From: an uncultured Bacilli bacterium
GTDB lineage: Bacteria > Bacillota_I > Bacilli_A > RF39 > UBA660
Direction of reading: 5' to 3'
Length of the DNA stretch: 48,813 nt
Assembly (NCBI GenBank): GCA_947628905.1
Contig: CANRBQ010000004.1
Span: 1 to 48,813, forward strand
Notes under the pieces: generated by a model
Database searches by the model: none
What the model was told of the DNA's origin: nothing
Seen by the model: only the letters and a program-made list of their open reading frames with translations
Part shown: positions 1 to 48,813 of the stretch, piece by piece
Position numbering within the stretch: position 1 is the first letter of the stretch
Layout: each line of letters opens with the position of its first letter
Program-made: the position numbers and the translations under genes

Positions 1-1464
1 ACTAAAAAAGTATTATTAGTTTTAGTTGTATTAGTAGCAATAACAACAACTATAGTTTCTTTAAGTTCAAGAGCAAAGTATCAAGTAACTAGTAGTGTTC
101 AAATAGTAAAAGGTAAAGTATCATATCAACCATATGATTTTAAGATAGTAAAAATATACCAAGAAAATGATACAGGAAGTTATGATGAAGTAGATGAAGT
201 ACCAACAACAGAATATGAAATAAATGAAGAAGATAGTAAATGTATGATAGATGATAATACCAAAGATACAGAAGCAATATTAAAAACAATAAATGGTAAT
301 CATACATTTGCTAATCTAAAGAAGATGGATAAGTGTACTGTATATTTTAGTAAAATTCCAACTCCAGAAGATACATTAGCTCAATTAAATAAAGCAAGTG
401 AAAAAGGAACAACAGATGGTTTTACAAATATGGATACAACAGAACATAAAAATAATGAAAAAACAATTATGTATAGTGATGAAGATGATTTAGGAACAAC
501 ATACTATTTTAGAGGCAAAGTAAAAGATAATTGGGTTAAGTTTGGAAAAGAAGGTAATGATGATATATGGTGGCGAATCATCAGAATCAACGGCAATGGT
601 TCAATAAGGATGATATATGCTGGTAAAGGAACTAGTGCTCCAACAAGTGATGGATATTTAAACAATAATAGAACAGGTAGTCAATTACAAATAAGTGGAT
701 ATAATACGTATTCTAATGATAATAAATATGTAGGGTACATGTATGGAACAGATAAAACAGGCAGCGCCACTAAAGAAACCACCCCAACAACTAGTTATGA
801 TCAAGCGCATACTAATAATTTTGATAGTGATATTAAAAAAATATTAGATAATTGGTATAATACTAATCTAAAAACAGAATATGGAAAATACATAGATTCA
901 AATGCTGGATTTTGTAATGATAGAAAAATAGCAACAATAAGTATAAATGACTATGGAACAGAAGGATATGGAAGTTATTCAACAGTATATATAGCAGAAG
1001 ACAGATTAATAAATACAAATTGGAATGCTAATACAAAACATACTCCAACATTCAAGTGTAGTGAAAGATTTAATATATTTTCACTTCCAGGAGCACAAAA
1101 ACCAAATGGAGAAGATTATGGAAATCATAAATTAAGAGCTAACAATGGAACAGGAGAAAATAGTCCAATAGGATTAATAACCATAGATGAAGCAGTATTT
1201 GCAGGAGGATACTATTCTAGACTAGATAATCAATCCGATAATACACAATTTTACTTATATACAGGACAAACTTATTGGACCATGACTCCAGCTTACTTCA
1301 GCATTTACGGCTATGCTACCATATTCATTATACATAAGAATGGCTACCTTGTTGACAATGGTGTGAGCAGTGGGAATGGTGTTCGCCCAGTAATAAATCT
1401 CTCTGCTAATGTTAAATTATCAGGTGAAGGAACATACACCAACCCATATACAATTTCTGATTAA
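1..1464 (+). CDS. 5'-truncated secreted/surface protein, paralog of 34464..35933, with DGR-target-like (CLec/DUF6273-like) C-terminus
   Basis: Frame is open from base 1 (TKKVLLVLVVLVAITTTIVSLSSRAKYQVTSSVQIVKGKVSY), so the true start is upstream of the window, not at 244. Shares the motifs DDLGTTYYFRG, WRIIRINGNGSIRMIY, PIGLIT.DE and WTMTP...GVRPVINL with the paralog. Confidence 0.8.
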   Translation, partial: TKKVLLVLVVLVAITTTIVSLSSRAKYQVTSSVQIVKGKVSYQPYDFKIVKIYQENDTGSYDEVDEVPTTEYEINEEDSKCMIDDNTKDTEAILKTINGNHTFANLKKMDKCTVYFSKIPTPEDTLAQLNKASEKGTTDGFTNMDTTEHKNNEKTIMYSDEDDLGTTYYFRGKVKDNWVKFGKEGNDDIWWRIIRINGNGSIRMIYAGKGTSAPTSDGYLNNNRTGSQLQISGYNTYSNDNKYVGYMYGTDKTGSATKETTPTTSYDQAHTNNFDSDIKKILDNWYNTNLKTEYGKYIDSNAGFCNDRKIATISINDYGTEGYGSYSTVYIAEDRLINTNWNANTKHTPTFKCSERFNIFSLPGAQKPNGEDYGNHKLRANNGTGENSPIGLITIDEAVFAGGYYSRLDNQSDNTQFYLYTGQTYWTMTPAYFSIYGYATIFIIHKNGYLVDNGVSSGNGVRPVINLSANVKLSGEGTYTNPYTISD

Positions 1465-2881: not shown

Positions 2882-3586
2882 TTAATTAACTCCACAACTA
2901 TCATTTAAATCTAAAGGTATCTTATAAGTAGTAATCTTATTATCATTATCTGTTGCATTTATCATTAAATAAAGAGTATTATCATGATAATCTTTACAAG
3001 ATTTTTTATAATCATCAACGGCTAATGTAACTTTTTGTAAAAAATCTTCTAATTTAATAGTTTTATTTTTATTATACTTATAAGAACTAATAATCTTTTG
3101 AGTATCTTCATCACCTTCATATAAAGTACATTCAATATCTTTATAATCGGAAGTATCATTACCTCCACAATACTGAATATTTGTTATATAAATAGAAGAT
3201 TTTTTATCATTATAAGCAATATTCCCCGAAATATTAAAATTATCACATCCACTAGATAATGTTTTAAAAGCAAAATCACTTTTATCTTTAACTAAAAACC
3301 AAATTATCAATCCTAAAACTATAACTATTAATAATAAACCAATTATTATTAAAATCTTTTTACTTTTCTTATTTTCTTTATATTCTCCCTGAAATAATTC
3401 TTCCAAACTAACATTAAAATCTTTACTAATTTCTTTAATTAAAGTAATATCAGGCATATTTTTTCCTGTTTCCCACTTACTAACAGCCTGATAAGTAACA
3501 TTATATTTATCAGCAAATTCCTTCTGTGTCATATTATTTTTTAATCTTAAATCTCTAATAAACTGTCCAAATTTCTCTTGATTCAC
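2882..3586 (-). CDS. XRE-family HTH regulator with TM helix and extracellular domain
   Basis: QKEFADKYNVTYQAVSKWETGKNMPD HTH followed by a hydrophobic segment. Confidence 0.85.
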   Translation of the reverse strand: MNQEKFGQFIRDLRLKNNMTQKEFADKYNVTYQAVSKWETGKNMPDITLIKEISKDFNVSLEELFQGEYKENKKSKKILIIIGLLLIVIVLGLIIWFLVKDKSDFAFKTLSSGCDNFNISGNIAYNDKKSSIYITNIQYCGGNDTSDYKDIECTLYEGDEDTQKIISSYKYNKNKTIKLEDFLQKVTLAVDDYKKSCKDYHDNTLYLMINATDNDNKITTYKIPLDLNDSCGVN

Positions 3587-9792: not shown

Positions 9793-12612
9793 TTACTTAA
9801 CCACAATATTAACTATTTTCCCTTTAATAACAATTATTTTAACTATATCTTTACCATCTGTATGTTTCTTAACATTTTCATTATTTAAAGCTTTATCTTT
9901 AATACTTTCCTCATCTTCATCTGCTTTAACAGTAATTTCTCCTCTAAGTTTTCCATTAACTTGTACTCCAATTGTAACTTCATCATCAACTGTTTTAGCT
10001 TCATCATATGTTGGCCAATCCATTGCCGCGATATGTTTAGTATAACCAATCTCTTCATTTAATTCTTCTGTAATATGTGGAGCAATTGGATTTAATAAAA
10101 CTAATAATGTTTGATAATCTTTTTTAGTTATTTCTTTTTTATCTTCATAATTATTTGCTAAAATCATCAAACTAGAAACTGCTGTATTATATTTCATTGT
10201 AGCTAAATCATTAGTTACTTTTTTTATTGTTTTATGAATAATATTTTCTAAATCTTTTGAATATTCTTCTTTATCATTAATCTTTTCTTTTAATTTAATT
10301 ACTCTATCTAAAAATCTTTTACAACCTTTAAGCCCTTCATTACTCCATGGAATATCTTTTTCATAATCTCCCATGAACATTTCAAATAGTCTTAAAGTAT
10401 CTGCTCCATATTTATTTACAACATCAACTGGATTAATTCCATTTCCTTTAGATTTACTTATTTTAGTTCCATCTTCCGCTAAAATCATTCCATGAGCAAC
10501 TCTCTTTTTAAATGGTTCTGGTGTAGGTACTAATCCTTGATCATAAAGGAATTGATGCCAAAATCTTGCATAAAGTAAATGTCTTGTTGCATGTTCCATT
10601 CCCCCATTATAATAATCTACCATTCCCCAATACTTAAGAGCATCTTGCCCCACAAATTCTTTATCATTATGAGGATCCATATAGCGTAGCCAGTACCAAC
10701 TAGAACCAGCCCAGTTAGGCATTGTATCAGTCTCTCTTTTGGCCATTTTACCACACTTAGGACAAGGAGTATTAACCCATTCTGAAATATTGGCAAGTGG
10801 TGATTCTCCTGTATCTGTTGGTTCATAATGAGCAACTTTAGGAAGTAAAACTGGAAGTTCTTCTTCTGGTACAGGAACCCAACCACAATCTTCACAATAA
10901 ATCATTGGAATAGGTTCACCCCAGAATCTTTGTCTTGAAAATATCCAATCTTGTAAACGATAATTAACTGTTTTTTTACCAACTTTTTTCTCTTCTAAAA
11001 ATTCAAGCATTCTTTTAATAGCGGCTTCTTTATTAAGACCATTTAAGAAATCTGAATTAATATGAATGCCATCTCCCACCATAGCTCCAGGATTTAAAGC
11101 ATACATAAATGTTTTAGAGTGTAGTTCATCCTTAATTTCTTCTAAAATTGTTTTTTTATCTACCCATTCACAATCAAATTTTTCATCTGCATCTAAAGAC
11201 TGCGAATCTTGTTCATAATTATCTAATTCAAAATATAAACCTGTAGAATTAATATTAAAATATTTATCTTTATTATAAGCATAATAATGATGATTAATAA
11301 TTGGTAAAGTATATTTTAATGTTAAATTCTTATAACCCGTTTCTTCTTTTATTTCTCTAAGAGCACAATCTAATGGACTTTCATTTTCTTTAATTGTTCC
11401 TCCTACAAATAAACGTCCTCCTAATTCATGCCAATTAATAGTTAAATACTTATTTTCTTTTTTATCATAAACAATAGCAACGATAGAATTTTTCTTAACT
11501 TCATCTTTATTAGGAGTACCAGTTTCTTCTGCTAAAACCTGAATAATAGGTATATTAAATTTCTTAGCAAAAGCATAATCTCTCTCATCATGGGCAGGAA
11601 CTGCCATGATTGCTCCAGTTCCATAAGAAGCTAAAACATAATCACTTATATATATTGGTATTTCTTCATTATTAACTGGATTTATTGCTACTAAACCTTC
11701 TAATTTAACTCCAGTTTTATCTTTTGTTACATCAGTTCTTTCTATTTCACTTTTTTGTCTTGCAGCTTCTTGATAAGATTCTACTTCTGAAATATTTTTA
11801 ATTCTATCTTTATATTTTGTAAGAAAATCATGTTCTGGTGACATAACCATAAAAGTTACTCCAAATAAAGTATCACATCTCGTAGTAAATACTTTTAATA
11901 CATCATCAGTATCTTTAAGTTTAAAATCTACTTCAGCCCCAATACTTTTACCTATCCAATTTATTTGAGCTGTTTTAATTTTTTCTTCAAACTCTGTATC
12001 TTTAAGCCCATCAAGTAATCTATCTGCATAATCACTCATTCGTAAAATCCACTGTGATTTTAACTTTTTAGTTACAACTGAACCACATCTCTCACAAACT
12101 CCTCCTGCAGCATCTTCATTAGAAAGTCCTGTTCTACAATTAGGACACCAATTTATTTCTTTTAAAGCTTTATAAGCCATTCCCTTTTTTACAAATTGTA
12201 AAAACTGCCACTGTGTCCATTTATAATATTCTGGATCTGTTGTTGCAAACTCTCTTGACCAATCAAAAGACATACCTAAAGCCTCAATTTGTCCTTTAAA
12301 AGTTTTAATATTTTCCTTTACAGCATCTGCTGGATATATATGATTTTTTATCGCATATTGTTCTGCTGGAGCCCCAAAAGCATCCCATCCCATTGGAAAT
12401 AAAACATTATACCCTTGTAAACGTTTCATTCTAGCCATTGCATCTAATGCTGAATAACTTCTAACATGCCCCACATGTAAACCTGATCCACTTGGATAAG
12501 GAAATTCTACTAATATATAATATTTTTCTTTATTCCCCCCATTTTTAGCTTCAAAATAATGGTTATCAGCCCATATTTTTTGCCATTTTTTTTCTACTTC
12601 TTTTGTATTCAT
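9793..12612 (-). CDS. leuS: leucyl-tRNA synthetase with inserted Nudix domain
   Basis: FPYPSGSGLHVGH, GWDAFG, FTTRCDTLFG, GTGAIMAVPAHDERD, DWIFSRQRFWGEPIP, KISKSKGN. Confidence 0.98.
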   Translation of the reverse strand: MNTKEVEKKWQKIWADNHYFEAKNGGNKEKYYILVEFPYPSGSGLHVGHVRSYSALDAMARMKRLQGYNVLFPMGWDAFGAPAEQYAIKNHIYPADAVKENIKTFKGQIEALGMSFDWSREFATTDPEYYKWTQWQFLQFVKKGMAYKALKEINWCPNCRTGLSNEDAAGGVCERCGSVVTKKLKSQWILRMSDYADRLLDGLKDTEFEEKIKTAQINWIGKSIGAEVDFKLKDTDDVLKVFTTRCDTLFGVTFMVMSPEHDFLTKYKDRIKNISEVESYQEAARQKSEIERTDVTKDKTGVKLEGLVAINPVNNEEIPIYISDYVLASYGTGAIMAVPAHDERDYAFAKKFNIPIIQVLAEETGTPNKDEVKKNSIVAIVYDKKENKYLTINWHELGGRLFVGGTIKENESPLDCALREIKEETGYKNLTLKYTLPIINHHYYAYNKDKYFNINSTGLYFELDNYEQDSQSLDADEKFDCEWVDKKTILEEIKDELHSKTFMYALNPGAMVGDGIHINSDFLNGLNKEAAIKRMLEFLEEKKVGKKTVNYRLQDWIFSRQRFWGEPIPMIYCEDCGWVPVPEEELPVLLPKVAHYEPTDTGESPLANISEWVNTPCPKCGKMAKRETDTMPNWAGSSWYWLRYMDPHNDKEFVGQDALKYWGMVDYYNGGMEHATRHLLYARFWHQFLYDQGLVPTPEPFKKRVAHGMILAEDGTKISKSKGNGINPVDVVNKYGADTLRLFEMFMGDYEKDIPWSNEGLKGCKRFLDRVIKLKEKINDKEEYSKDLENIIHKTIKKVTNDLATMKYNTAVSSLMILANNYEDKKEITKKDYQTLLVLLNPIAPHITEELNEEIGYTKHIAAMDWPTYDEAKTVDDEVTIGVQVNGKLRGEITVKADEDEESIKDKALNNENVKKHTDGKDIVKIIVIKGKIVNIVVK

Positions 12613-23260: not shown

Positions 23261-23394
23261 AACTTTCACCCTTATCATAATAATGATATAATAAAATAGT
23301 TAAAAAGTCAATTTTTAAGCATAAATTAAAATAAAAATAACAAATAATAATCATAAATTTTAATTTTTATGATACAATTATTATAGGTGATAAT

Positions 23395-33563: not shown

Positions 33564-34376
33564 ATGACTGAAAAAAAACATACAGTAATTAAAATTATAG
33601 CTATCTTAATAATTATTATATTTATACTTTATTTATATGCTAGATATATTAATCCTATAAGCTTCAAAGTAATTGAAACCCCAATTTATGATACTAATTT
33701 AAATGAAAATTATAATGGTTTAAAAATAGCTCATTTATCAGATATTCATTATGGAAGAACAACAACAGAAGATAATTTAAAAAAAATAATTAAAGAAATA
33801 AATAAATTAAATGCAGATATTATAATATTTACTGGAGATTTATTTGATTATAAAAAAATATCTAAAGAAGATAAAGATTTAATGATCAAATATTTAAAAA
33901 AAATAAATTCTAAACTTTATAAATTTGCTATTATAGGTGATTATGATGAATTATATTTAAGTGATTATACAGAAATATTAACAGAATCTAATTTTATTTT
34001 ATTAAATAATACTTCTAAATTAGTTTATTATAATAATTCTACTCCTATAAATTTTATAGGCTTAACTAACACAGAAAATATTGAAGAACTATATAACAAT
34101 GATTATTATAATATTACTCTTATTCATAAACCAGATTTAATTAAAGATATTAAAAACACTAATTTAGCTTTTGCTGGTCACTCTTTAGGAGGACAATTTA
34201 AGATTCCTTTTATTGGTGGCATAAGAAAAATAGAAGGAGCAGAAACATACATTGATAATTACTATAAAATAAATAATACTAAACTCTTTATTTCTAATGG
34301 TATAGGAACACAAGATATAAGTCTAAGATTATTTAATACTCCATCAATAACTCTATATAGATTATATAATAACTAA
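33564..34376 (+). CDS. membrane-anchored metallophosphoesterase (YkuE-like, degenerate motifs)
   Basis: HLSDIH, FTGDL, HKPD, AGHSLGGQ, ISNGIG; likely start 33564. Confidence 0.82.
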   Translation: MTEKKHTVIKIIAILIIIIFILYLYARYINPISFKVIETPIYDTNLNENYNGLKIAHLSDIHYGRTTTEDNLKKIIKEINKLNADIIIFTGDLFDYKKISKEDKDLMIKYLKKINSKLYKFAIIGDYDELYLSDYTEILTESNFILLNNTSKLVYYNNSTPINFIGLTNTENIEELYNNDYYNITLIHKPDLIKDIKNTNLAFAGHSLGGQFKIPFIGGIRKIEGAETYIDNYYKINNTKLFISNGIGTQDISLRLFNTPSITLYRLYNN

Positions 34377-34463: not shown

Positions 34464-35933
34464 TTATTGAACTATATATGGATTAGTGTATGTACCATCA
34501 CCTGATAATTTCACATTAGCAGAGAGGTTTATCACAGGACGAGCACCATCAGTATTATACATAGCATCAGGTTCAATACCATAATTCAGACAAAAAACCT
34601 CTGCATATACACTTAACCTATATGGAGACATAGTCCAACTACCAGCGTTTGTATATAAGTAAAATTTTCTATTATTTGTTGAATCATCAGATTTGCGTCG
34701 ATAACCTCCTGCAAATACTACTTCATCTGCTGTTATCAAACCAATTGGGCTATTATCTCCTGTTCCATTGTTAGCTCTTAATTTATGATTTCCATAGTCA
34801 CTTCCATCTAGTTTTTGTGCTCCTGGAAGTGTAAATGTGTCATTTATTTGACTACATTTAAACGTTGGAGTATTTTTTTCATTTGCTTCTCCATTTGAGT
34901 TTGAAAATCTACTCATTGGGGCATAAGCAGTTTCTTCTTTTTTATATCCTTTTGCTGTATCATCTTTCCACCATTGATTTGGAGTTGTATTAATTTGTCT
35001 ATCATTGCAAAATCCAGCATTTGAATCTATATATTCTTCATATTCTGCTTTTAGATTTGAACTATACCAGCTATCTAATTTTTTCTTTATTGTACTATCA
35101 TTTTCATTTTTGTGAGTGTCCTCATATTTACTTGATCCTGATGTTCCATACATATATCCTACATAAATATTATCTGAAGAATAAGTTGAATTATATGAAA
35201 CATTCTGTAAAGTACTTTTATATCCATTATTATTTAAATATCCATCATCTGTTGGGATAGTAGTTCCAGTTCCAGTATATATCATTCTTATTGAACCATT
35301 ACCATTTATTCGAATAATTCGCCACCATATGTCCTCACTTCCTACTTTTCCAAACTTTACCCAATTGTCTTTTACTCTTCCTCTAAAATAGTATGTTGTT
35401 CCTAAATCATCTTCATCACTATATAATATAGACTTGTCATTTTCCCCTATATGTTCCTCAACATCCATATCTGTAAAACCGTCTTTATTACCTTCCTCTA
35501 TTGTTCTATTTGCTAATAGTTGTTCTCTAGCGTATACGTACATATCTAAATAAACATAACATTTAGTACCTTTTTTAGTTATACTTATGCTTACTTTTCC
35601 ATCTTTATATTCCATTGGTATATCTTTATGTTGTATATTATCTCCTGGAATTGTACAGTAACTTTTTTCTTTATTTAATTCATAACTCCCTTTTGGTACT
35701 TCATCAGTTGGATTATATGTCTCACTATATTCAGATTCTTGTACTTTTAAAGCTACAACATTTAAATCTGCTAAACTATAACTAACTTTTCCTTTAACTA
35801 TTTGAATATTACTTGTTACATGATATTTTGCTCTACTATTTGTTATATATATTATTCCCATTAACAATACTAATATTGTTATAACTAATACTATTTTCTT
35901 TTTTCTTCCTTTACTTAACTTCTCTATCCTCAT
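34464..35933 (-). CDS. secreted/surface protein, paralog of 1..1464
   Basis: N-terminal TM/signal helix plus SRAKY..IVKGKVSY; same core motifs; C-terminus WTMSP...GARPVINLSANVKLSGDGTYTNPY. Confidence 0.85.
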   Translation of the reverse strand: MRIEKLSKGRKKKIVLVITILVLLMGIIYITNSRAKYHVTSNIQIVKGKVSYSLADLNVVALKVQESEYSETYNPTDEVPKGSYELNKEKSYCTIPGDNIQHKDIPMEYKDGKVSISITKKGTKCYVYLDMYVYAREQLLANRTIEEGNKDGFTDMDVEEHIGENDKSILYSDEDDLGTTYYFRGRVKDNWVKFGKVGSEDIWWRIIRINGNGSIRMIYTGTGTTIPTDDGYLNNNGYKSTLQNVSYNSTYSSDNIYVGYMYGTSGSSKYEDTHKNENDSTIKKKLDSWYSSNLKAEYEEYIDSNAGFCNDRQINTTPNQWWKDDTAKGYKKEETAYAPMSRFSNSNGEANEKNTPTFKCSQINDTFTLPGAQKLDGSDYGNHKLRANNGTGDNSPIGLITADEVVFAGGYRRKSDDSTNNRKFYLYTNAGSWTMSPYRLSVYAEVFCLNYGIEPDAMYNTDGARPVINLSANVKLSGDGTYTNPYIVQ

Positions 35934-35957
35934 ATCTTTCTCTTCTTTCTAATTGAT

Positions 35958-36024
35958 TTACTCAATTATATTAGAAATTTCTAACTTATACTAAAATTAT
36001 AATCTAATGAATGTCAAAAGTCAA
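35958..36024 (-). promoter_or_regulatory. sigma-A promoter plus conserved leader with palindromic operator (copy 1)
   Basis: TTGACT, 17 nt, TATAAT; palindrome TTAGAAATTTCTAA at 35971-35984; 35958-36006 is identical to the reverse complement of 48765-48813. Confidence 0.85.
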
Positions 36025-36099
36025 GAAAAAGTTGGCTATTTCGGCACTATGATTTTAAGAATTCAAATTTAATGAGACAATTATTTTAGGTGATTAAAA

Positions 36100-36555
36100 T
36101 TGGAATATGGTATTAAAATGAAAGAAATAAGATTAGAAAAGAAAACTAGCCAAAAAGAAATTGCAAATTACTTAGGTATATCCCCAATAACTTATAGTCA
36201 TTATGAAACACAAGATACAACAATACCTATTAAACATTTATATAATTTTTGCAATTATTTTAATAGTTCAATTAATTATATATTTAGTTTTTCAAATATA
36301 AAATATGGAAAATATAATAACGAAAAAATTAATAAAACAATTTCTGGCGAACGACTAAAAAATTTTAGAAAAGAAAACAAACTGACTCAGAGTAAACTTG
36401 CCAAAACCCTAAATACTGATAAAACCGTAATATGCAATTATGAAAAAGGCAAAAATATTATTGCTACCCCATTTCTATATTCTTTATGTAAAAACTATAA
36501 AATATCAGCTGATTATCTTTTAGGAAGAACAGACTTTCCTAAATATTTAAAATAA
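36100..36555 (+). CDS. tandem (double) XRE HTH regulator
   Basis: Two HTH_3-like repeats; TTG start after AGGTGA; paralog of 48217..48672. Confidence 0.88.
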   Translation: MEYGIKMKEIRLEKKTSQKEIANYLGISPITYSHYETQDTTIPIKHLYNFCNYFNSSINYIFSFSNIKYGKYNNEKINKTISGERLKNFRKENKLTQSKLAKTLNTDKTVICNYEKGKNIIATPFLYSLCKNYKISADYLLGRTDFPKYLK

Positions 36556-36601
36556 CCAAAAAAAATAATGATTTTTTAACTATCATTACTTTTTTTATAA
36601 C

Positions 36602-38185
36602 CTAATCAATTAAGTATTTTTTAACTGCTATTCCTAAAACTCCTAAACCAACAACTCCAGCACCTACAAAAGTAAGTAAACTATCTAATGTCTTTGGAGC
36701 TTCTTCTACTTTCTCATCTTCTAACTTAGCAATTAAATACATTCCATTAGTAATATTAGTATTTAAATTTAATTCATTTCCCTCTTTATCAGTAAAACCT
36801 ACAACATTTAAACCAGTTGCTTTTAAATCATCTAATAAATTTTGTAAAGTAGAACCACTTTTAACTTTATAATTTTCTTTTACTTCATCTTTTATAACTA
36901 AAGTAATATATAAACTATTTAAATCTTCATCTACAATAAATTGTCCAGATACAGTAACATCACTATCAGGCATTATAAATGTATTATTTGTTATCTCTAT
37001 AGTATCTTCTGTACTCTTATTAGTAACTTTCAAACTTTCAGTATCTAACTTATAACCCGCATTTGGAGAAGCCATTATTTTAACTGTATCACCTGCAGCA
37101 GCATAAACTGGATTAGTTGTTATAGTTCCATTTTGAACTGTACTTACCTCTACAACATGTAAAGCGTCTCCCTCTAAATTTTCTAACTTACCAGTAGTTA
37201 AATCTATATTAGCTCCTTCTTCTAAAGTAATATCTTGAGGATCTATTTTAACATTTCCTTTTATTGTAAGAGTATGTCCCGCTTTAACAGTTAAACTACC
37301 ATTTTGGGCATTTAATGTAACACCTGCTGGAACTTCTAAATCTTCATCAATAGTTACATTACCATTAATATTAATATTTTTAGAATAATTTTGAGCAATC
37401 ATTGCTTCTTTTAAACTTGGAAAATATCCTTCTTTATTAAAGTTTCCTTTATCTCCAGTTTCAACTGTTTCACTTTCAACTGGAAATGTAGTATGAACAT
37501 TTACTAAAAGATAATATTTCTCACTATAACTATCAGCATCACTTGTAAAAACCCCTACATAAGATCTATCTTCATATCCATAAAATACATAATCAGTACC
37601 ATAAACTAATTGACTAAAAGATTTATCACTAAACTTATCATCTATAGCGTCTCTAACAGTTTTATTTCCTGTAGCCCCTCCATCATTAAGTGGAACAAAC
37701 TTACTTTGATTATTATCATAGTAATCTATTTTTATTTGAGGAACCCAAACACTATTATTTGTTAAAGGACTCTCACTTCCAATTTGACTATCTACTGCAC
37801 TTTTAGCACTCGCCATATTTTCTACACCATTAAAAGGCTCAGAACATTTTTTAAAATTACTTCCTGCAATACTTGTATCTATTCCAAAATATAATGTTCC
37901 AAATACTGCTGGACTATTAGCATTACCAGCTTTATGATTTAATATTGCCTCTATTGCTTCATCATTTAAACCATTTGTTGTAATATCAACTACTGAAACT
38001 TTTAATTTATCATCATATCTAACTGTAATATTAGATGTACTACTATCTCCTAAATAATCATAAGCTTTTAATCCTGGAATCTCTTTACTATTAAATACAA
38101 CATCTTCTGCTTTAACATTCAAATTAAAACCTAGCATAAATGCACTAACAACCATTAACCCCAATAATTTTTTTAAGCTTTTCAT
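36602..38185 (-). CDS. cell-surface protein with signal peptide, InlB-B-like repeat and sortase-like anchor
   Basis: AxA signal peptide; NGTITTNP...AGDTVKI...PNAGYKL...TFIMPDSDVTVSGQF; C-terminal APKTLD, TM helix, KK. Confidence 0.7.
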   Translation of the reverse strand: MKSLKKLLGLMVVSAFMLGFNLNVKAEDVVFNSKEIPGLKAYDYLGDSSTSNITVRYDDKLKVSVVDITTNGLNDEAIEAILNHKAGNANSPAVFGTLYFGIDTSIAGSNFKKCSEPFNGVENMASAKSAVDSQIGSESPLTNNSVWVPQIKIDYYDNNQSKFVPLNDGGATGNKTVRDAIDDKFSDKSFSQLVYGTDYVFYGYEDRSYVGVFTSDADSYSEKYYLLVNVHTTFPVESETVETGDKGNFNKEGYFPSLKEAMIAQNYSKNININGNVTIDEDLEVPAGVTLNAQNGSLTVKAGHTLTIKGNVKIDPQDITLEEGANIDLTTGKLENLEGDALHVVEVSTVQNGTITTNPVYAAAGDTVKIMASPNAGYKLDTESLKVTNKSTEDTIEITNNTFIMPDSDVTVSGQFIVDEDLNSLYITLVIKDEVKENYKVKSGSTLQNLLDDLKATGLNVVGFTDKEGNELNLNTNITNGMYLIAKLEDEKVEEAPKTLDSLLTFVGAGVVGLGVLGIAVKKYLID

Positions 38186-38305
38186 AACCCATTATTCCCT
38201 TCTTATTTTAATTTTACTACATCTTTACTATAGTTGTCAAACTATTAACAATTATATTTACATTTAAAAGACATAACTTTACAATTAAAATAAGATAATA
38301 GATTA

Positions 38306-39739
38306 TTAATTATTCATAACTTCTTTTATTTTATTTTTAGCATTAATTATAGTTTCTTGATCTGGAATCATAACATAAGACTTAGCCCCTTTATATGAAT
38401 AAGTATACTGATATCCATCCGTTCCATCTAAACTATAACTATCAATATCCCAACTTTTATTATCTTTAATCTGTTTTTTAATAAAATCAGTTAAATTATC
38501 CATTTTCATATTAGTAACAAAAGAAGATTCCAAAGCTTTTAACAAACTATTATATTTAATAATAATTTTAGGACTTAAAGCTTTATTTATAAGAGCCTCT
38601 ATCATTCTTATTTGATTTTCTCCTCTAACTCTATCTCCTAAAGTAAAAGCTTTTCTTTCTCTTACAAATGAAAGAGCTTCTTCTCCATTTACATAATTAA
38701 GTCCTTTCTTATAACTATATCCATCTCTTGATACAAAATCATATTCTGAATAAACATTAACTCCATCTAAAGCATCAACTATTTTAGTCAAACTAGAAAA
38801 ATTAACTTTAACATAATAATTAATCTTAATATCAAGCAATTCTTCTAAAGTCTTAACACTAACATCTACTCCATAAATACCCGCATGTGTAAGCTTATCT
38901 TTTTCATTTATTCCCCCTAAAAGCACATAGTAATCTCTTGGAATAGAAATAATTTCTATTTTATTTTTCTTCGGATTAACTGATACAACCATATTAACAT
39001 CACTTCTAGAAACACTACTAACAGAACCATATGTATCTATCCCCGAAATATAAATATTAAAAGAATCTTTAGTTATATCAACTTCCTTTAAAACATCTTC
39101 TGTTTCTACATCTATTGCAAAATCATAAACAACCTGATAACTTTGAGCAAACTCTTCATTTTCTTCACTTAAAATTGCTAAAATTGATTCTTCAACTAAC
39201 ATTGAATCAACATTCCCCTTTATAAATTCATCTTTAAGTTTAGTTATATCATCATATGTTTTATAATCCATATTTAAATTTTTATCTATTTTATTCTTAG
39301 CTTTTTTAAGTCCTTCTGTTTTAAAATCTAAACTTCCTATAATAGTATTATCTAATTTATCTAACTCTTTAATATTTTTATTTTTTAAAACTATAACATT
39401 ATAATTCTCTGTTTTATAATTTACAAACCCCAATTTTTTTAAAAACCCTAAAGTATTAAGTTCATATACAATTCCCATTACTAAAATAACTATATAAACT
39501 AAAGAAAACATTGTCCCAAATATTCTTTTTTTAACTCCTTTTTTAGTTAAAGTCATAGTTACAAGTGTAATAGTTATTAAAACTAATAACACACATAATA
39601 CCAAATAATATTCTCCTGGTAAAACATCTATAAATTTAAACAATCCTAAAGTAATAATTGTAATAATAACCATTAAAATAGCCAAATACTTAAAAAAAGG
39701 TAATATCACTTTTTTATTTTTCGCTTCTTTTTTCTGCAT
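38306..39739 (-). CDS. LCP (LytR-CpsA-Psr) family protein, CpsA-like
   Basis: YISGIDT, SRSDVNM, SIPRDYY, DKLTHAG, FVRERKAF..GD..RG.NQ. Confidence 0.92.
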   Translation of the reverse strand: MQKKEAKNKKVILPFFKYLAILMVIITIITLGLFKFIDVLPGEYYLVLCVLLVLITITLVTMTLTKKGVKKRIFGTMFSLVYIVILVMGIVYELNTLGFLKKLGFVNYKTENYNVIVLKNKNIKELDKLDNTIIGSLDFKTEGLKKAKNKIDKNLNMDYKTYDDITKLKDEFIKGNVDSMLVEESILAILSEENEEFAQSYQVVYDFAIDVETEDVLKEVDITKDSFNIYISGIDTYGSVSSVSRSDVNMVVSVNPKKNKIEIISIPRDYYVLLGGINEKDKLTHAGIYGVDVSVKTLEELLDIKINYYVKVNFSSLTKIVDALDGVNVYSEYDFVSRDGYSYKKGLNYVNGEEALSFVRERKAFTLGDRVRGENQIRMIEALINKALSPKIIIKYNSLLKALESSFVTNMKMDNLTDFIKKQIKDNKSWDIDSYSLDGTDGYQYTYSYKGAKSYVMIPDQETIINAKNKIKEVMNN

Positions 39740-40437: not shown

Positions 40438-41148
40438 TTACTTACAATAATTAATTAAATAATCATTACTTACTTTAGTATTTTTATCTATAACCCAATA
40501 TTCACTATCTTTATCAAAATTACATCTATATACATCATAAAACAATGTATCATAATATATAACATTACCAGTAGTTATAGAAACAATTCTAAACATTGGA
40601 GCTTCTTTATTAAGTTTTACATTTATGTAATCAGTAAATAATAATATTCCCATTGATATAATAAAAATAAGCACTATAATTAATAATCGTTTATACCATT
40701 TAATTATTTTTAACAATCTTGAAATACCAACCATAAAAATAATTATTCCCAAAACTGAATAAATAGAGCCCCAACTACTTTCACTTGGAAAAATCATAAT
40801 TGCAGATATAGAAATAAATAACCCAAAAATAACAAGAATTAAAGATATAAATTGACTATATTTATTTATCTTTTTTGTAGAATAAACAATCGTATTAACC
40901 ATATTTTCTTCAAACTTATTTTGATATTCATCTTCTCTTAATTTTTTTCCACTTAATAATTCATTTATTGTAATTCCAAGTATTTCGCATAAAGGTTTAA
41001 ATAATGATAAATCTGGCATATTCTTACCATTTTCCCAATTACTAACAGAACGATCTGTAACCCCTAATTGTTCTGCTAACTCCGATTGTGTTATCTTTTT
41101 TTCCTTTCTACATTTTGCAATAAATTTTCCAATATTTAATTGATCCAT
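40438..41148 (-). CDS. XRE-family regulator with TM helices
   Basis: TQSELAEQLGVTDRSVSNWENGKNMPD followed by three TM segments; likely start 41148. Confidence 0.85.
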   Translation of the reverse strand: MDQLNIGKFIAKCRKEKKITQSELAEQLGVTDRSVSNWENGKNMPDLSLFKPLCEILGITINELLSGKKLREDEYQNKFEENMVNTIVYSTKKINKYSQFISLILVIFGLFISISAIMIFPSESSWGSIYSVLGIIIFMVGISRLLKIIKWYKRLLIIVLIFIISMGILLFTDYINVKLNKEAPMFRIVSITTGNVIYYDTLFYDVYRCNFDKDSEYWVIDKNTKVSNDYLINYCK

Positions 41149-41355
41149 ATTTCCTCCTTTCATTTACAATTTTATAATATTTAACTATTTTTGAACATGA
41201 AATAAAACTTGAGTCTAATTATTTAACAAAAAATATATTAAAACTCCCAATATGCAATCTTGAATGTTCCTTTTTATGTTATACAAATTCTCTATATTAA
41301 ATATATTGCATTAAAAACAAGCTCTAAAGGAAGAAGTACGACAACCTTTATTTTA

Positions 41356-47726: not shown

Positions 47727-48156
47727 CTATAATCACCTTCACTATAACTAATATAAAAGCACTTAATATTCCATAAAGAATAACACTACCCGCAAGTTTA
47801 AAAAAATTAGAACCCAAACCTGTAATTAAACCTTCTCTTTTATAATCTAAAGCACTACTTGATACTGAATGCGCAAATCCTGTTGTAGGAAGTAATAACC
47901 CAGCTTTAGCTTTACTCATCCAATCATCAAAAAATCCCAAAGCAGTAAACAAAGACGCAATAAAAATAACTATTAAACATGTCCAACTGCTAGCCTCTAT
48001 TCTTCCAATTTCAAAAATATTCATTAATACTTGAATAACCCCCTCAACTAAAAAGCCAATTGTACCTCCAACTAAAAAAGCAAAAATAGTATTCTCTAAT
48101 TTATTTTCTTTTGGTTCATGCTTCTTAACTAATTTTTGATATTCTTCTTTATTCAT
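47719..48156 (-). CDS. spoVAC: stage V sporulation protein AC
   Basis: AFLVGG.I, AKAG...PTTGFAHSV.S.A..YKREG, FKLAGSVI; likely start 48156. Confidence 0.93.
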   Translation of the reverse strand: MNKEEYQKLVKKHEPKENKLENTIFAFLVGGTIGFLVEGVIQVLMNIFEIGRIEASSWTCLIVIFIASLFTALGFFDDWMSKAKAGLLLPTTGFAHSVSSSALDYKREGLITGLGSNFFKLAGSVILYGILSAFILVIVKVIIGG

Positions 48157-48171
48157 ACTAACCTCCATTCT

Positions 48172-48200
48172 TATTATGAATAAATAAAAAAAAGTTATAC
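48172..48200 (-). promoter_or_regulatory. putative sigma-G-type promoter of spoVA
   Basis: GTATA, 17 nt, CATAATA upstream of the GGAGG RBS. Confidence 0.55.
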
Positions 48201-48216
48201 TTTATTTTGTATAACC

Positions 48217-48672
48217 TTAATTAATCTTCTTAGGATTATCTATTCTACCCAACAAATAGTCAGCAGACATTTTATAATTATCACATATTGTATATAAAAA
48301 TGGTGTAGGAATAAGTCTTTTTCCCTTTTCATAATCCGACAAAACAGACTGTGTAGTATTTAATAATTCACTTAATTTTTCTTGAGTAAATCTATTTTCT
48401 TTTCTAAAAGCCCTTAATCTTTCACCACTTTTCTTAAGATCAAAACCTTTAAAACAGTTATTATAATTCCTAGATTCACAAAAACTAAAAATATAGTCTA
48501 AAGAAACATTAAAATAATCACACAATACAATTAAATGTTTAATCGGAATTACTAAATCTTCTTTTTCATAATGACTATATGTTCCACTATCAAGATTAAT
48601 CATCTCCCCCGCTTTCCTTTGAGTTAAACCTTCCCTATTTCTTAAACTTTCCAATCTTTCTCTATAAAGCAT
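48217..48672 (-). CDS. tandem (double) XRE HTH regulator
   Basis: Two HTH repeats; TYSHYE..IPIKHL and GERL..FRKEN..TQ..SADYLLGR shared with 36100..36555. Confidence 0.88.
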   Translation of the reverse strand: MLYRERLESLRNREGLTQRKAGEMINLDSGTYSHYEKEDLVIPIKHLIVLCDYFNVSLDYIFSFCESRNYNNCFKGFDLKKSGERLRAFRKENRFTQEKLSELLNTTQSVLSDYEKGKRLIPTPFLYTICDNYKMSADYLLGRIDNPKKIN

Positions 48673-48746
48673 TTAAAATCACCATTATAATTCTTTCATA
48701 TCTAAGTTATAATGTCACATTTTACTGGAATTATACGATATTTTTC

Positions 48747-48813
48747 TTGACAATTTACACTTGCTAGATTATAATTTTAGTATAAGTTAGAAATTTCTAA
48801 TATAATTGAGTAA
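48747..48813 (+). promoter_or_regulatory. sigma-A promoter plus conserved leader with palindrome (copy 2), pointing out of the window
   Basis: TTGACA (48747-52), 17 nt, TATAAT (48770-75); TTAGAAATTTCTAA at 48787-48800. Confidence 0.85.

Follow-up and report, generated by a model that had tools for sequence, protein, structure and literature searches.

A 49-nt exact repeat within the conserved 5' cassette of a multicopy signal-anchored protein family in uncultured AT-rich gut Bacilli

The DNA analysed here (the window: 48,813 nt, 25.2% GC) comes from an uncultured Bacilli bacterium, and its genes include those for LeuRS, LysRS, Obg, FeoB, ScpA/B, SpoVA and a tad-type pilus operon. A plasmid or phage origin was rejected, because the window carries chromosomal housekeeping genes and megablast returned no match. 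Two members of a large family of variable surface proteins, here called P, and two XRE-type regulators are relevant to what follows (Table 1). P1 is a paralog of P2 (77-85% nucleotide identity); its relatives give a weak C-terminal match to DUF6273, and its AlphaFold model has a pLDDT of 43.6, too low for the model to be of use. Each XRE contains two stretches that match HTH_3 (PF01381; 1.9e-21 for XRE1 and 1.1e-20 for XRE2). In a fold comparison each half of XRE1 superposed on P22 c2, C.BclI, ClgR, SinR and ImmR, and the top structure matches included no solved tandem-HTH analog. The AlphaFold model (pLDDT 95.7) puts the two recognition helices at the residues that vary most in the protein. 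One copy of the repeat described below, at site A, lies between P1 and XRE1; the other, at site B, adjoins XRE2 and points out of the window. Two further XRE-type proteins, of 234 and 241 aa, are encoded outside P cassettes (2882-3586 and 40438-41163, both on the minus strand); each has one HTH_3, at the N-terminus, followed by a long stretch that lacks a Pfam match.

Table 1. Features of the window at and around the two copies of the repeat
Feature	Position	Strand	Remarks
P2, P-family paralog	1..1464	+	truncated near codon 12 by the start of the window
P1, 489-aa signal-anchored P-family protein	34464..35933	-	no Pfam match
Predicted P1 mRNA 5' leader	35934..35989	-	MFE -8.0 kcal/mol, z -2.27
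Second leader hairpin, AATTGA-GTAAA-TCAATT	35951..35967	-	found in some copies only
49-nt exact repeat, copy A	35958..36006	-	from just before the -10 to leader +32
14-bp palindrome TTAGAAATTTCTAA	35971..35984	-	in RNA, predicted core of hairpin GUUAGA/UCUAAU, +5..+20
P1 promoter TTGACT-17-TATAAT (11/12)	35996..36024	-	TTTTTC at 36025-36030 before it
Box A, TAGTGCCGAAATAGCCAAC	36031..36049	-	proposed private XRE1 operator: distal half-site, A-tract, proximal half-site
Putative extended -10 of XRE1 promoter, TGAGACAAT (family-wide TGAGAAAAT)	36073..36081	+	proposed from conservation
XRE1, 151 aa, two HTH_3 domains in one chain	36100..36555	+	recognition helices at residues 29-36 and 108-115
XRE2, 151 aa, tandem HTH	48217..48672	-	49% identical to XRE1
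Putative XRE2 promoter GTGACA-17-(TG)AAGAAT	48690..48718	-	
Box B, TACTGGAATTATACGAT	48723..48739	+	proposed private operator of XRE2
P3 promoter TTGACA-17-TATAAT (12/12)	48747..48775	+	TTTTTC at 48741-48746 before it
49-nt exact repeat, copy B	48765..48813	+	palindrome at 48787-48800; window ends inside P3 leader

A preliminary description of this DNA had reported the same 49 bp at two loci of opposite orientation, and the two copies are indeed identical letter for letter. Its accompanying details also held: a second TATAAT follows the palindrome at both sites, both copies have TTTTTC and a consensus-spaced -35 hexamer, and the flanks have diverged, with identities of 49% between the XRE proteins and 0.53-0.63 in the DNA upstream of the -35. 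Judged by sequence, both P promoters are near-perfect sigma-A-type promoters, and transcription is predicted to start at the A of 35989, a conserved purine that is the seventh nucleotide after the -10. The palindrome occurs twice in the window when up to one mismatch is allowed, against 0.22 expected matches; as the window, at 25.2% GC, contains four other perfect 14-nt palindromes, the palindrome by itself is weak evidence. The second leader hairpin has a 4-nt loop at site B. A consensus scan of site A did not list the putative extended -10 of XRE1 and gave instead a weak ATGAGA-17-TAAAAT (36072-36100, 9/12). The spacer of the promoter at 35996-36024, like that of many modules in two related genomes (G003, G004), opens with a further TTGACA, 7-8 nt beyond the first hexamer (TTGACTTTTGACA), which could form an overlapping second promoter (TTGACA-18-TAGTAT, 10/12).

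Forty-nine nucleotides is the length of the longest exact match because the window stops there. Gapless extension gave 73 nt at 90% identity (35958-36030 against 48741-48813). A 1238-bp contig from another assembly (L001; ENA ERZ27249363) is 100% identical to window positions 47910-48813 and extends 334 nt past the window end, through the rest of the leader and into a third paralog, P3. Positions 1-407 of this contig aligned with window positions 35620-36030 at 86% identity over 414 nt, with a 1-nt indel directly after the 49-mer, and the true repeat is thus longer than 49 nt. Between L001 and site A the identity is 0.53-0.63 on the XRE side, rises at TTTTTCTTGAC, reaches 1.0 over the -10 and the leader, remains at 0.8-0.97 through the first ~50 codons and decays beyond. 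A circular contig, with the window end joined to its start, was rejected, since the paralog that follows the window end in L001 is P3. A second contig of the same assembly (L112) is identical to window positions 35979-38861 and starts within the palindrome. With the window end, the start of L112 and the window start (about codon 12 of P2) all at cassette copies, assemblies evidently break in this repeat.

P1 has more than 6500 relatives, which in species-representative genomes belong to uncultured AT-rich gut Bacilli whose genomes each contain many paralogs (under the labels 'Mycoplasma sp. CAG:776', 'Tenericutes UMGS1172' or rabbit 'Lapin' MAGs). A divergent tandem-HTH XRE gene lies 130-250 nt upstream in about half of 81 P loci. 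The 23-mer TATAAGTTAGAAATTTCTAATAT, with up to three mismatches, occurs 24, 18, 14 and 15 times in four genomes of 1.1-1.4 Mb (0-2 matches for the reversed-pattern control), and the looser pattern TATAAT-N6-ATARRYTAGRAA occurs 7-53 times in nine further genomes. When loci were fetched by the leader pattern alone, a P gene started 30-60 nt downstream in 29 of 30 and a divergent XRE gene was present in 26 of 30. The 49-mer is therefore a single representative of a promoter and leader that occur throughout the family, and the family-wide cis-element proposed in the preliminary description is borne out by these genome-wide motif searches, at about 15-53 copies per related genome (1.1-1.5 Mb). The largest expansion seen, 53 copies of TATAAT-N6-ATAAGCTAGAAA, is in a 1.5-Mb genome (G014, represented by loci L033 and L075) whose label, Ruminococcus sp. 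MAG, looks wrong because the genome is small and AT-rich and has the P family. In three loci two tandem-HTH XRE genes stand in a row upstream of one P gene (L069, 1916-2856; L028, 1701-2744; and L109).

The extent of the conserved unit was determined from 42 aligned modules. On the XRE side identity is 0.40-0.59 and is no higher within genomes than between them; from the promoter spacer to about codon 60 it is 0.73-0.95 within a genome versus 0.3-0.6 between genomes. As the within-genome excess is limited to the stretch from the spacer to codon 60, a 5' cassette of ~300 bp appears to evolve in concert. This cassette consists of the promoter core, the leader and the first ~60 codons, including the signal anchor, and the 49-mer is its conservation peak: the between-genome identity maxima (0.85 and 0.74) fall exactly on 40 nt of the 49-mer region. 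Across species only about -1 to +20 stays conserved. In a set of 56 modules from 17 genomes, picked regardless of leader, positions -1 to +12 (TATAAG[C/T]TAG[A/G]AA) carry 1.3-2 bits and the right arm less, with 0.13 bits at position -2. Nearly all copies within a genome share a genome-specific leader variant (TTAGAAAATTTTAA in G005, ATAAGCTAGAAA in G014, ATAAGCTAGGAA in G008-G013). Mantel tests related genome to leader (r=0.31, 0/2000 permutations) and gave no significant relation between genome and the box upstream of the promoter (r=0.02).

If transcribed from the conserved purine, the predicted mRNA begins with AUAA followed by the hairpin GUUAGA-AAUU-UCUAAU. Positions +5 to +10 are paired in every leader type, and their partners differ. 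Type 1 leaders pair locally (GUUAGA:UCUAAU), and type 2 leaders pair GCUAGG with a CCUAGC about 55 nt downstream; relative to type 1, type 2 has two compensatory pairs (U-A to C-G and A-U to G-C) and folds at -14 to -20 kcal/mol. Other partners are UAGCUUAU at +21..33 (L058, L060, L115, L119, L135), AGCUUAU at +60 (L136) and, in the 53-copy genome, GCUUAU at +33 together with a local UCUA. There are at least five partner solutions across the leaders, and the partners are not positionally homologous. The probability that +5..+10 are paired was 0.59, a modest gain over the 0.39 obtained with shuffled tails, and only 16 of 67 leaders exceeded 95% of their shuffles. A functional stem is made less likely by the low stability of the type-1 hairpin (-3.5 kcal/mol; -0.9 for the variant of G005) and by several copies in which the stem is broken (TTAGAAAATTATAA, TTAGAAAATTACAA).

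A paired 5' hexamer with differing partners and compensatory pairs would favour a 5' stem-loop in the RNA over an operator in the DNA, and the variable spacing of the partners fits an RNA helix and not a fixed-geometry protein site. Counting against the RNA reading, conservation of the 5' strand extends to its sequence beyond what pairing demands, and this calls for a sequence-specific reader or a constraint at the DNA level. By the RBS usage of the window, the left arm UUAGAAA repeats UUAGAAAG, which lies close to the SD of P1 itself, so that the right arm could pair with either, as a possible switch in SD access. Two RNase J paralogs score above the TIGR00649 cut-off in 10/10 related genomes. 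A search of 17 loci against Rfam gave no match at gathering score, the sole match in the window region being at chance level (E 4.5). CsrA-type control, with two GGA-like sites in the 5' hairpin and the SD, was considered and rejected, as PF02599 is absent from 10/10 related genomes in which the positive controls were detected. Spo0A, CodY, Fur and sigma-H were likewise rejected as readers of the palindrome, since none of their consensus sequences fits type 1.

The variable 19-bp box at -61..-43, just upstream of TTTTTC-TTGAC, behaves differently from the leader in that it follows the XRE clade across genomes and ignores leader type. It lies between the divergent -35 hexamers, its centre falling near -52 relative to the P promoter and at about -48 relative to the putative XRE promoter (TGnGAnAAT); boxes A and B are each unique in the window, even with four mismatches allowed. 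The box at site A, TAGTGCCGAAATAGCCAAC, has its counterpart TAGTGCCGAAATAGACAAC at locus L107, whose XRE is 73.5% identical to XRE1, and ACTGGAATTATACGA is identical at site B and at L080, whose XRE is 64% identical to XRE2. GTGTC(A/G)GAAATATCTAT or a near variant recurs at L037 (which has a type-2 leader), L109, L030 and L099 (TGTTCAGAATATCTAT in the last). In ortholog pairs across species the box is an island of conservation and the neighbouring intergenic bases are not conserved.

The two recognition helices correlate with different halves of this box. In statistics that rest on paralogs, which are not phylogenetically independent, the HTH1 helix correlated with the distal half (r=0.27, 0/5000 permutations) and not with the proximal half (r=0.02). 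Among the same non-independent paralogs the HTH2 helix correlated with the proximal half (r=0.20, 1/5000), with r=0.00 against both the distal half and the leader. Pairs with the same HTH2 and different HTH1 had an identity of 0.65 in the proximal half (background 0.41) and of 0.28 in the distal half (background 0.31); pairs with the same HTH1 and different HTH2 gave the opposite pattern, a double dissociation. Individual correspondences could also be read: HTH2 helices with TTQSV accompany CGAT and those with TTHSV accompany CGAC (6:0:0:7, Fisher p=6e-4, again among non-independent paralogs), IDQPTWS was found with ATATCTAT in 5/5 cases, and SYGT.AGYEIG with ATACCAAA in 3/3. The covariation predicts that each XRE has a private operator near its own gene and that this is most likely the upstream box. 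A 'master XRE' whose own box would be the leader was sought and rejected, the best sampled box matching it at 13/19 positions when the shuffled maximum averages 13.4.

The explanation favoured here, to which an even chance of being right is given, is that the 49-mer is the -10 and leader of P genes, that the palindrome acts as RNA, and that the XREs bind private boxes. The 49 bases would comprise the -10 box, the start and the first ~32 nt of the P-gene mRNA leader, and gene conversion would keep the 5' cassette alike among all P genes of one genome. The palindrome would be transcribed and, after four unpaired bases, form the 5'-terminal stem-loop of the P mRNA. This stem-loop might act post-transcriptionally, either by protecting the 5' end from RNase J or by setting access to the RBS, and a factor may read the invariant 5' strand AUAAG(U/C)UAG(A/G)AA. 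Each XRE would act as a single-chain pseudo-dimer on its private asymmetric 19-bp box between the divergent -35 hexamers, with HTH1 reading the distal half-site and HTH2 the half-site adjoining the P promoter.

A serious though less likely alternative is that the palindrome or the invariant left part TATAAGYTAGRAA is instead a common DNA operator, bound by a single factor that serves every cassette in a genome. Sitting immediately downstream of a near-consensus promoter, such a factor would work as a roadblock or a silencer, and the private XREs would modulate each gene from upstream. The position suits this arrangement, since +5..+20 of an 11-12/12 promoter is where a roadblock repressor would sit, and the left part is strongly conserved in sequence, not merely in pairing, across 17 genomes. 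Genome-specific variants present in nearly all copies would be expected if sites co-evolve with one factor, and in sister module classes palindromic operators are clearly present at this position of the leader and once more near the -35 (L014, L011, L027). However, no candidate factor was found, and no sampled XRE box resembles the leader beyond chance. Nor was the motif found outside P cassettes, so an autoregulatory copy is lacking, and the right half-site is variable, or in type 2 missing, with complementary partners turning up at a distance, which a DNA site of fixed geometry does not explain.

The leader might also have no role of its own beyond the -10 and the start context and be carried along by gene conversion of the 5' cassette. 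The homogenisation of the ~300-bp tract within genomes is what this explanation predicts, and assemblies break in that tract, as at the window end and in L112. Conversion acts only within genomes, however, whereas no non-coding stretch is better conserved between species than -1..+20, in species pairs whose XRE orthologs are 64-79% identical and whose neutral intergenic bases are randomised. Mere hitch-hiking is for these reasons distinctly unlikely.

The shared operator of the preliminary description was taken as one bound by the adjacent XREs, through which all XREs would cross-regulate all P promoters. The divergent arrangement, with a palindrome beside a tandem-HTH gene, invites this reading, and the HTH1 helix correlates weakly with the leader (r=0.13, a value reached by 77/5000 permutations). 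Against it, paralogs facing identical leaders have different recognition helices, and these helices track the halves of the upstream box instead. The leader type follows the genome and not the XRE clade, and in type-1 leaders that have no XRE the -10 and leader are unchanged behind other divergent regulators: an RHH/CopG-like protein of 62-69 aa with TTGTATTCA direct repeats in its promoter (L049, L056, L105), or a single-HTH protein of 88-93 aa (L040, L090, L045). As the helices vary while the leader is constant, and track the upstream box, the palindrome is most likely not a target of the adjacent XREs, and the operator reading is now very improbable.

The suggestion of a recombination or conversion site fared differently in its two parts, for the tract does behave as if gene-converted, and site-specific recombination is unlikely. 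A site that flips the 12.8-kb segment between the copies, or swaps P genes between regulators, would be consistent with the inverted orientation of the copies at 35958 and 48765 and with a 12-2-12 layout reminiscent of hix sites. The P and XRE phylogenies are also uncoupled (P1 and the L107 P protein are 35% identical, their XREs 73.5%), which implies that the XRE-side and P-side parts have recombined during evolution; homologous recombination within the 300-bp tract is, however, sufficient for this shuffling. No recombinase was found among the ORFs of the window, the XRE2-P3 junction is the same in two assemblies, and the copies lie scattered among housekeeping and essential genes (ScpA/B, SpoVA, LysRS, LeuRS), where frequent recombination among 15-50 sites would scramble the chromosome. 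A dedicated recombination or inversion site is consequently held to be highly improbable. That copy B is an assembly artefact of the contig end, which its termination exactly at the window end might suggest, was in effect ruled out by the independent contig L001, which runs through copy B into P3, and by dozens of intact copies inside long contigs of other genomes.

The closest known kind of system is the variable surface (lipo)protein families of Mycoplasma: vsp of M. bovis, vpma of M. agalactiae, vsa of M. pulmonis and vlp of M. hyorhinis. A literature search on the module itself brought up nothing relevant. Those families, like P, have many paralogs in a small genome, with divergent mature parts and with a 5' non-coding region and signal-peptide codons that are near-identical between paralogs; the hosts are likewise AT-rich Bacilli/Mycoplasmatota with reduced genomes. 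The P family differs from the vsp/vpma/vsa type in that each P gene has its own near-consensus promoter, and usually its own regulator, in place of a single expression promoter. It also lacks a lipobox Cys in the N-terminus and an adjacent recombinase, and its copies are dispersed and not clustered.

For the leader, the nearest analogs are mRNA 5' stabilisers such as the aprE and ermC leaders of B. subtilis and the cryIIIA STAB-SD. As in such stabilisers, the predicted stem begins ~4 nt from the (here predicted) 5' end, RNase J is present in relatives, and the 5' strand of the P leader resembles its own SD region (UUAGAAA against UUAGAAAG). The P leader differs in that its stem is much weaker (-3.5 kcal/mol) and its 5' strand is conserved in sequence. 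In PMC2777011, which cites Emory et al. 1992 on this point, the E. coli ompA 5' UTR is given as a 5'-terminal stem-loop that stabilises mRNA. The XREs share with Cro/CI-type regulators (P22 c2, 434 cI/Cro, SinR, ImmR) the HTH_3 fold and an operator, here putative, between divergent promoters. They differ in that a single 151-aa chain holds two HTHs and lacks both dimerisation and sensor domains, and the proposed site is asymmetric, with two independently evolving half-sites. Wolbachia Wmk also has two HTH domains (PMC12504857); it is likened to these proteins by its tandem HTH_3 architecture alone, its function and context being unrelated.

A broader proposal, speculative and on balance unlikely, is that each genome holds 15-50 orthogonal single-chain XRE switches, each with its private operator of two half-sites and each gating one variant surface protein, with the shared leader read by a common RNA- or DNA-binding factor. 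Antigenic or adhesive variation would then be produced by a transcription-factor network and not by DNA rearrangement, and a naturally evolved recognition code could be read from the helices (Gln to T and His to C at one helix position, for example). The covariation of helices and half-sites offers a natural library of predicted orthogonal single-chain HTH/operator pairs that would be useful for synthetic biology. The invariant leader would be a single sequence at which the entire repertoire of surface proteins might be switched, and could serve to detect that repertoire in metatranscriptomes. The cassettes take up several percent of a ~1.2-Mb genome and, being repeated, explain why MAG assemblies break at these loci. 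With them, a first approach to gene regulation opens up in a gut lineage that is widespread but uncultured (RF39-like 'Mycoplasma sp. CAG' Bacilli).

In a third type of P-gene leader, GTTTTGTCGAA is conserved some 60-90 nt past the -10 (L008, L010, L026, L036, L046, L067, L016, L076). This element matches the Spo0A-box consensus, TGTCGAA; given the sporulation genes in these organisms, some P genes may be tied to the onset of sporulation. Elsewhere in the window a repeat family, D1 (23345-23394, 33895-33944 and 36048-36097), reflects a shared promoter/RBS layout in which an extended -10 (TGATACAAT-like) stands only ~10 nt ahead of AGGTGAT and the start codon, and non-P genes here seem as a rule to have very short leaders. 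The leucyl-tRNA synthetase (9793-12612, minus strand) contains a NUDIX domain (PF00293, 2.9e-12, residues 377-494) directly after the editing domain, an unusual insertion.
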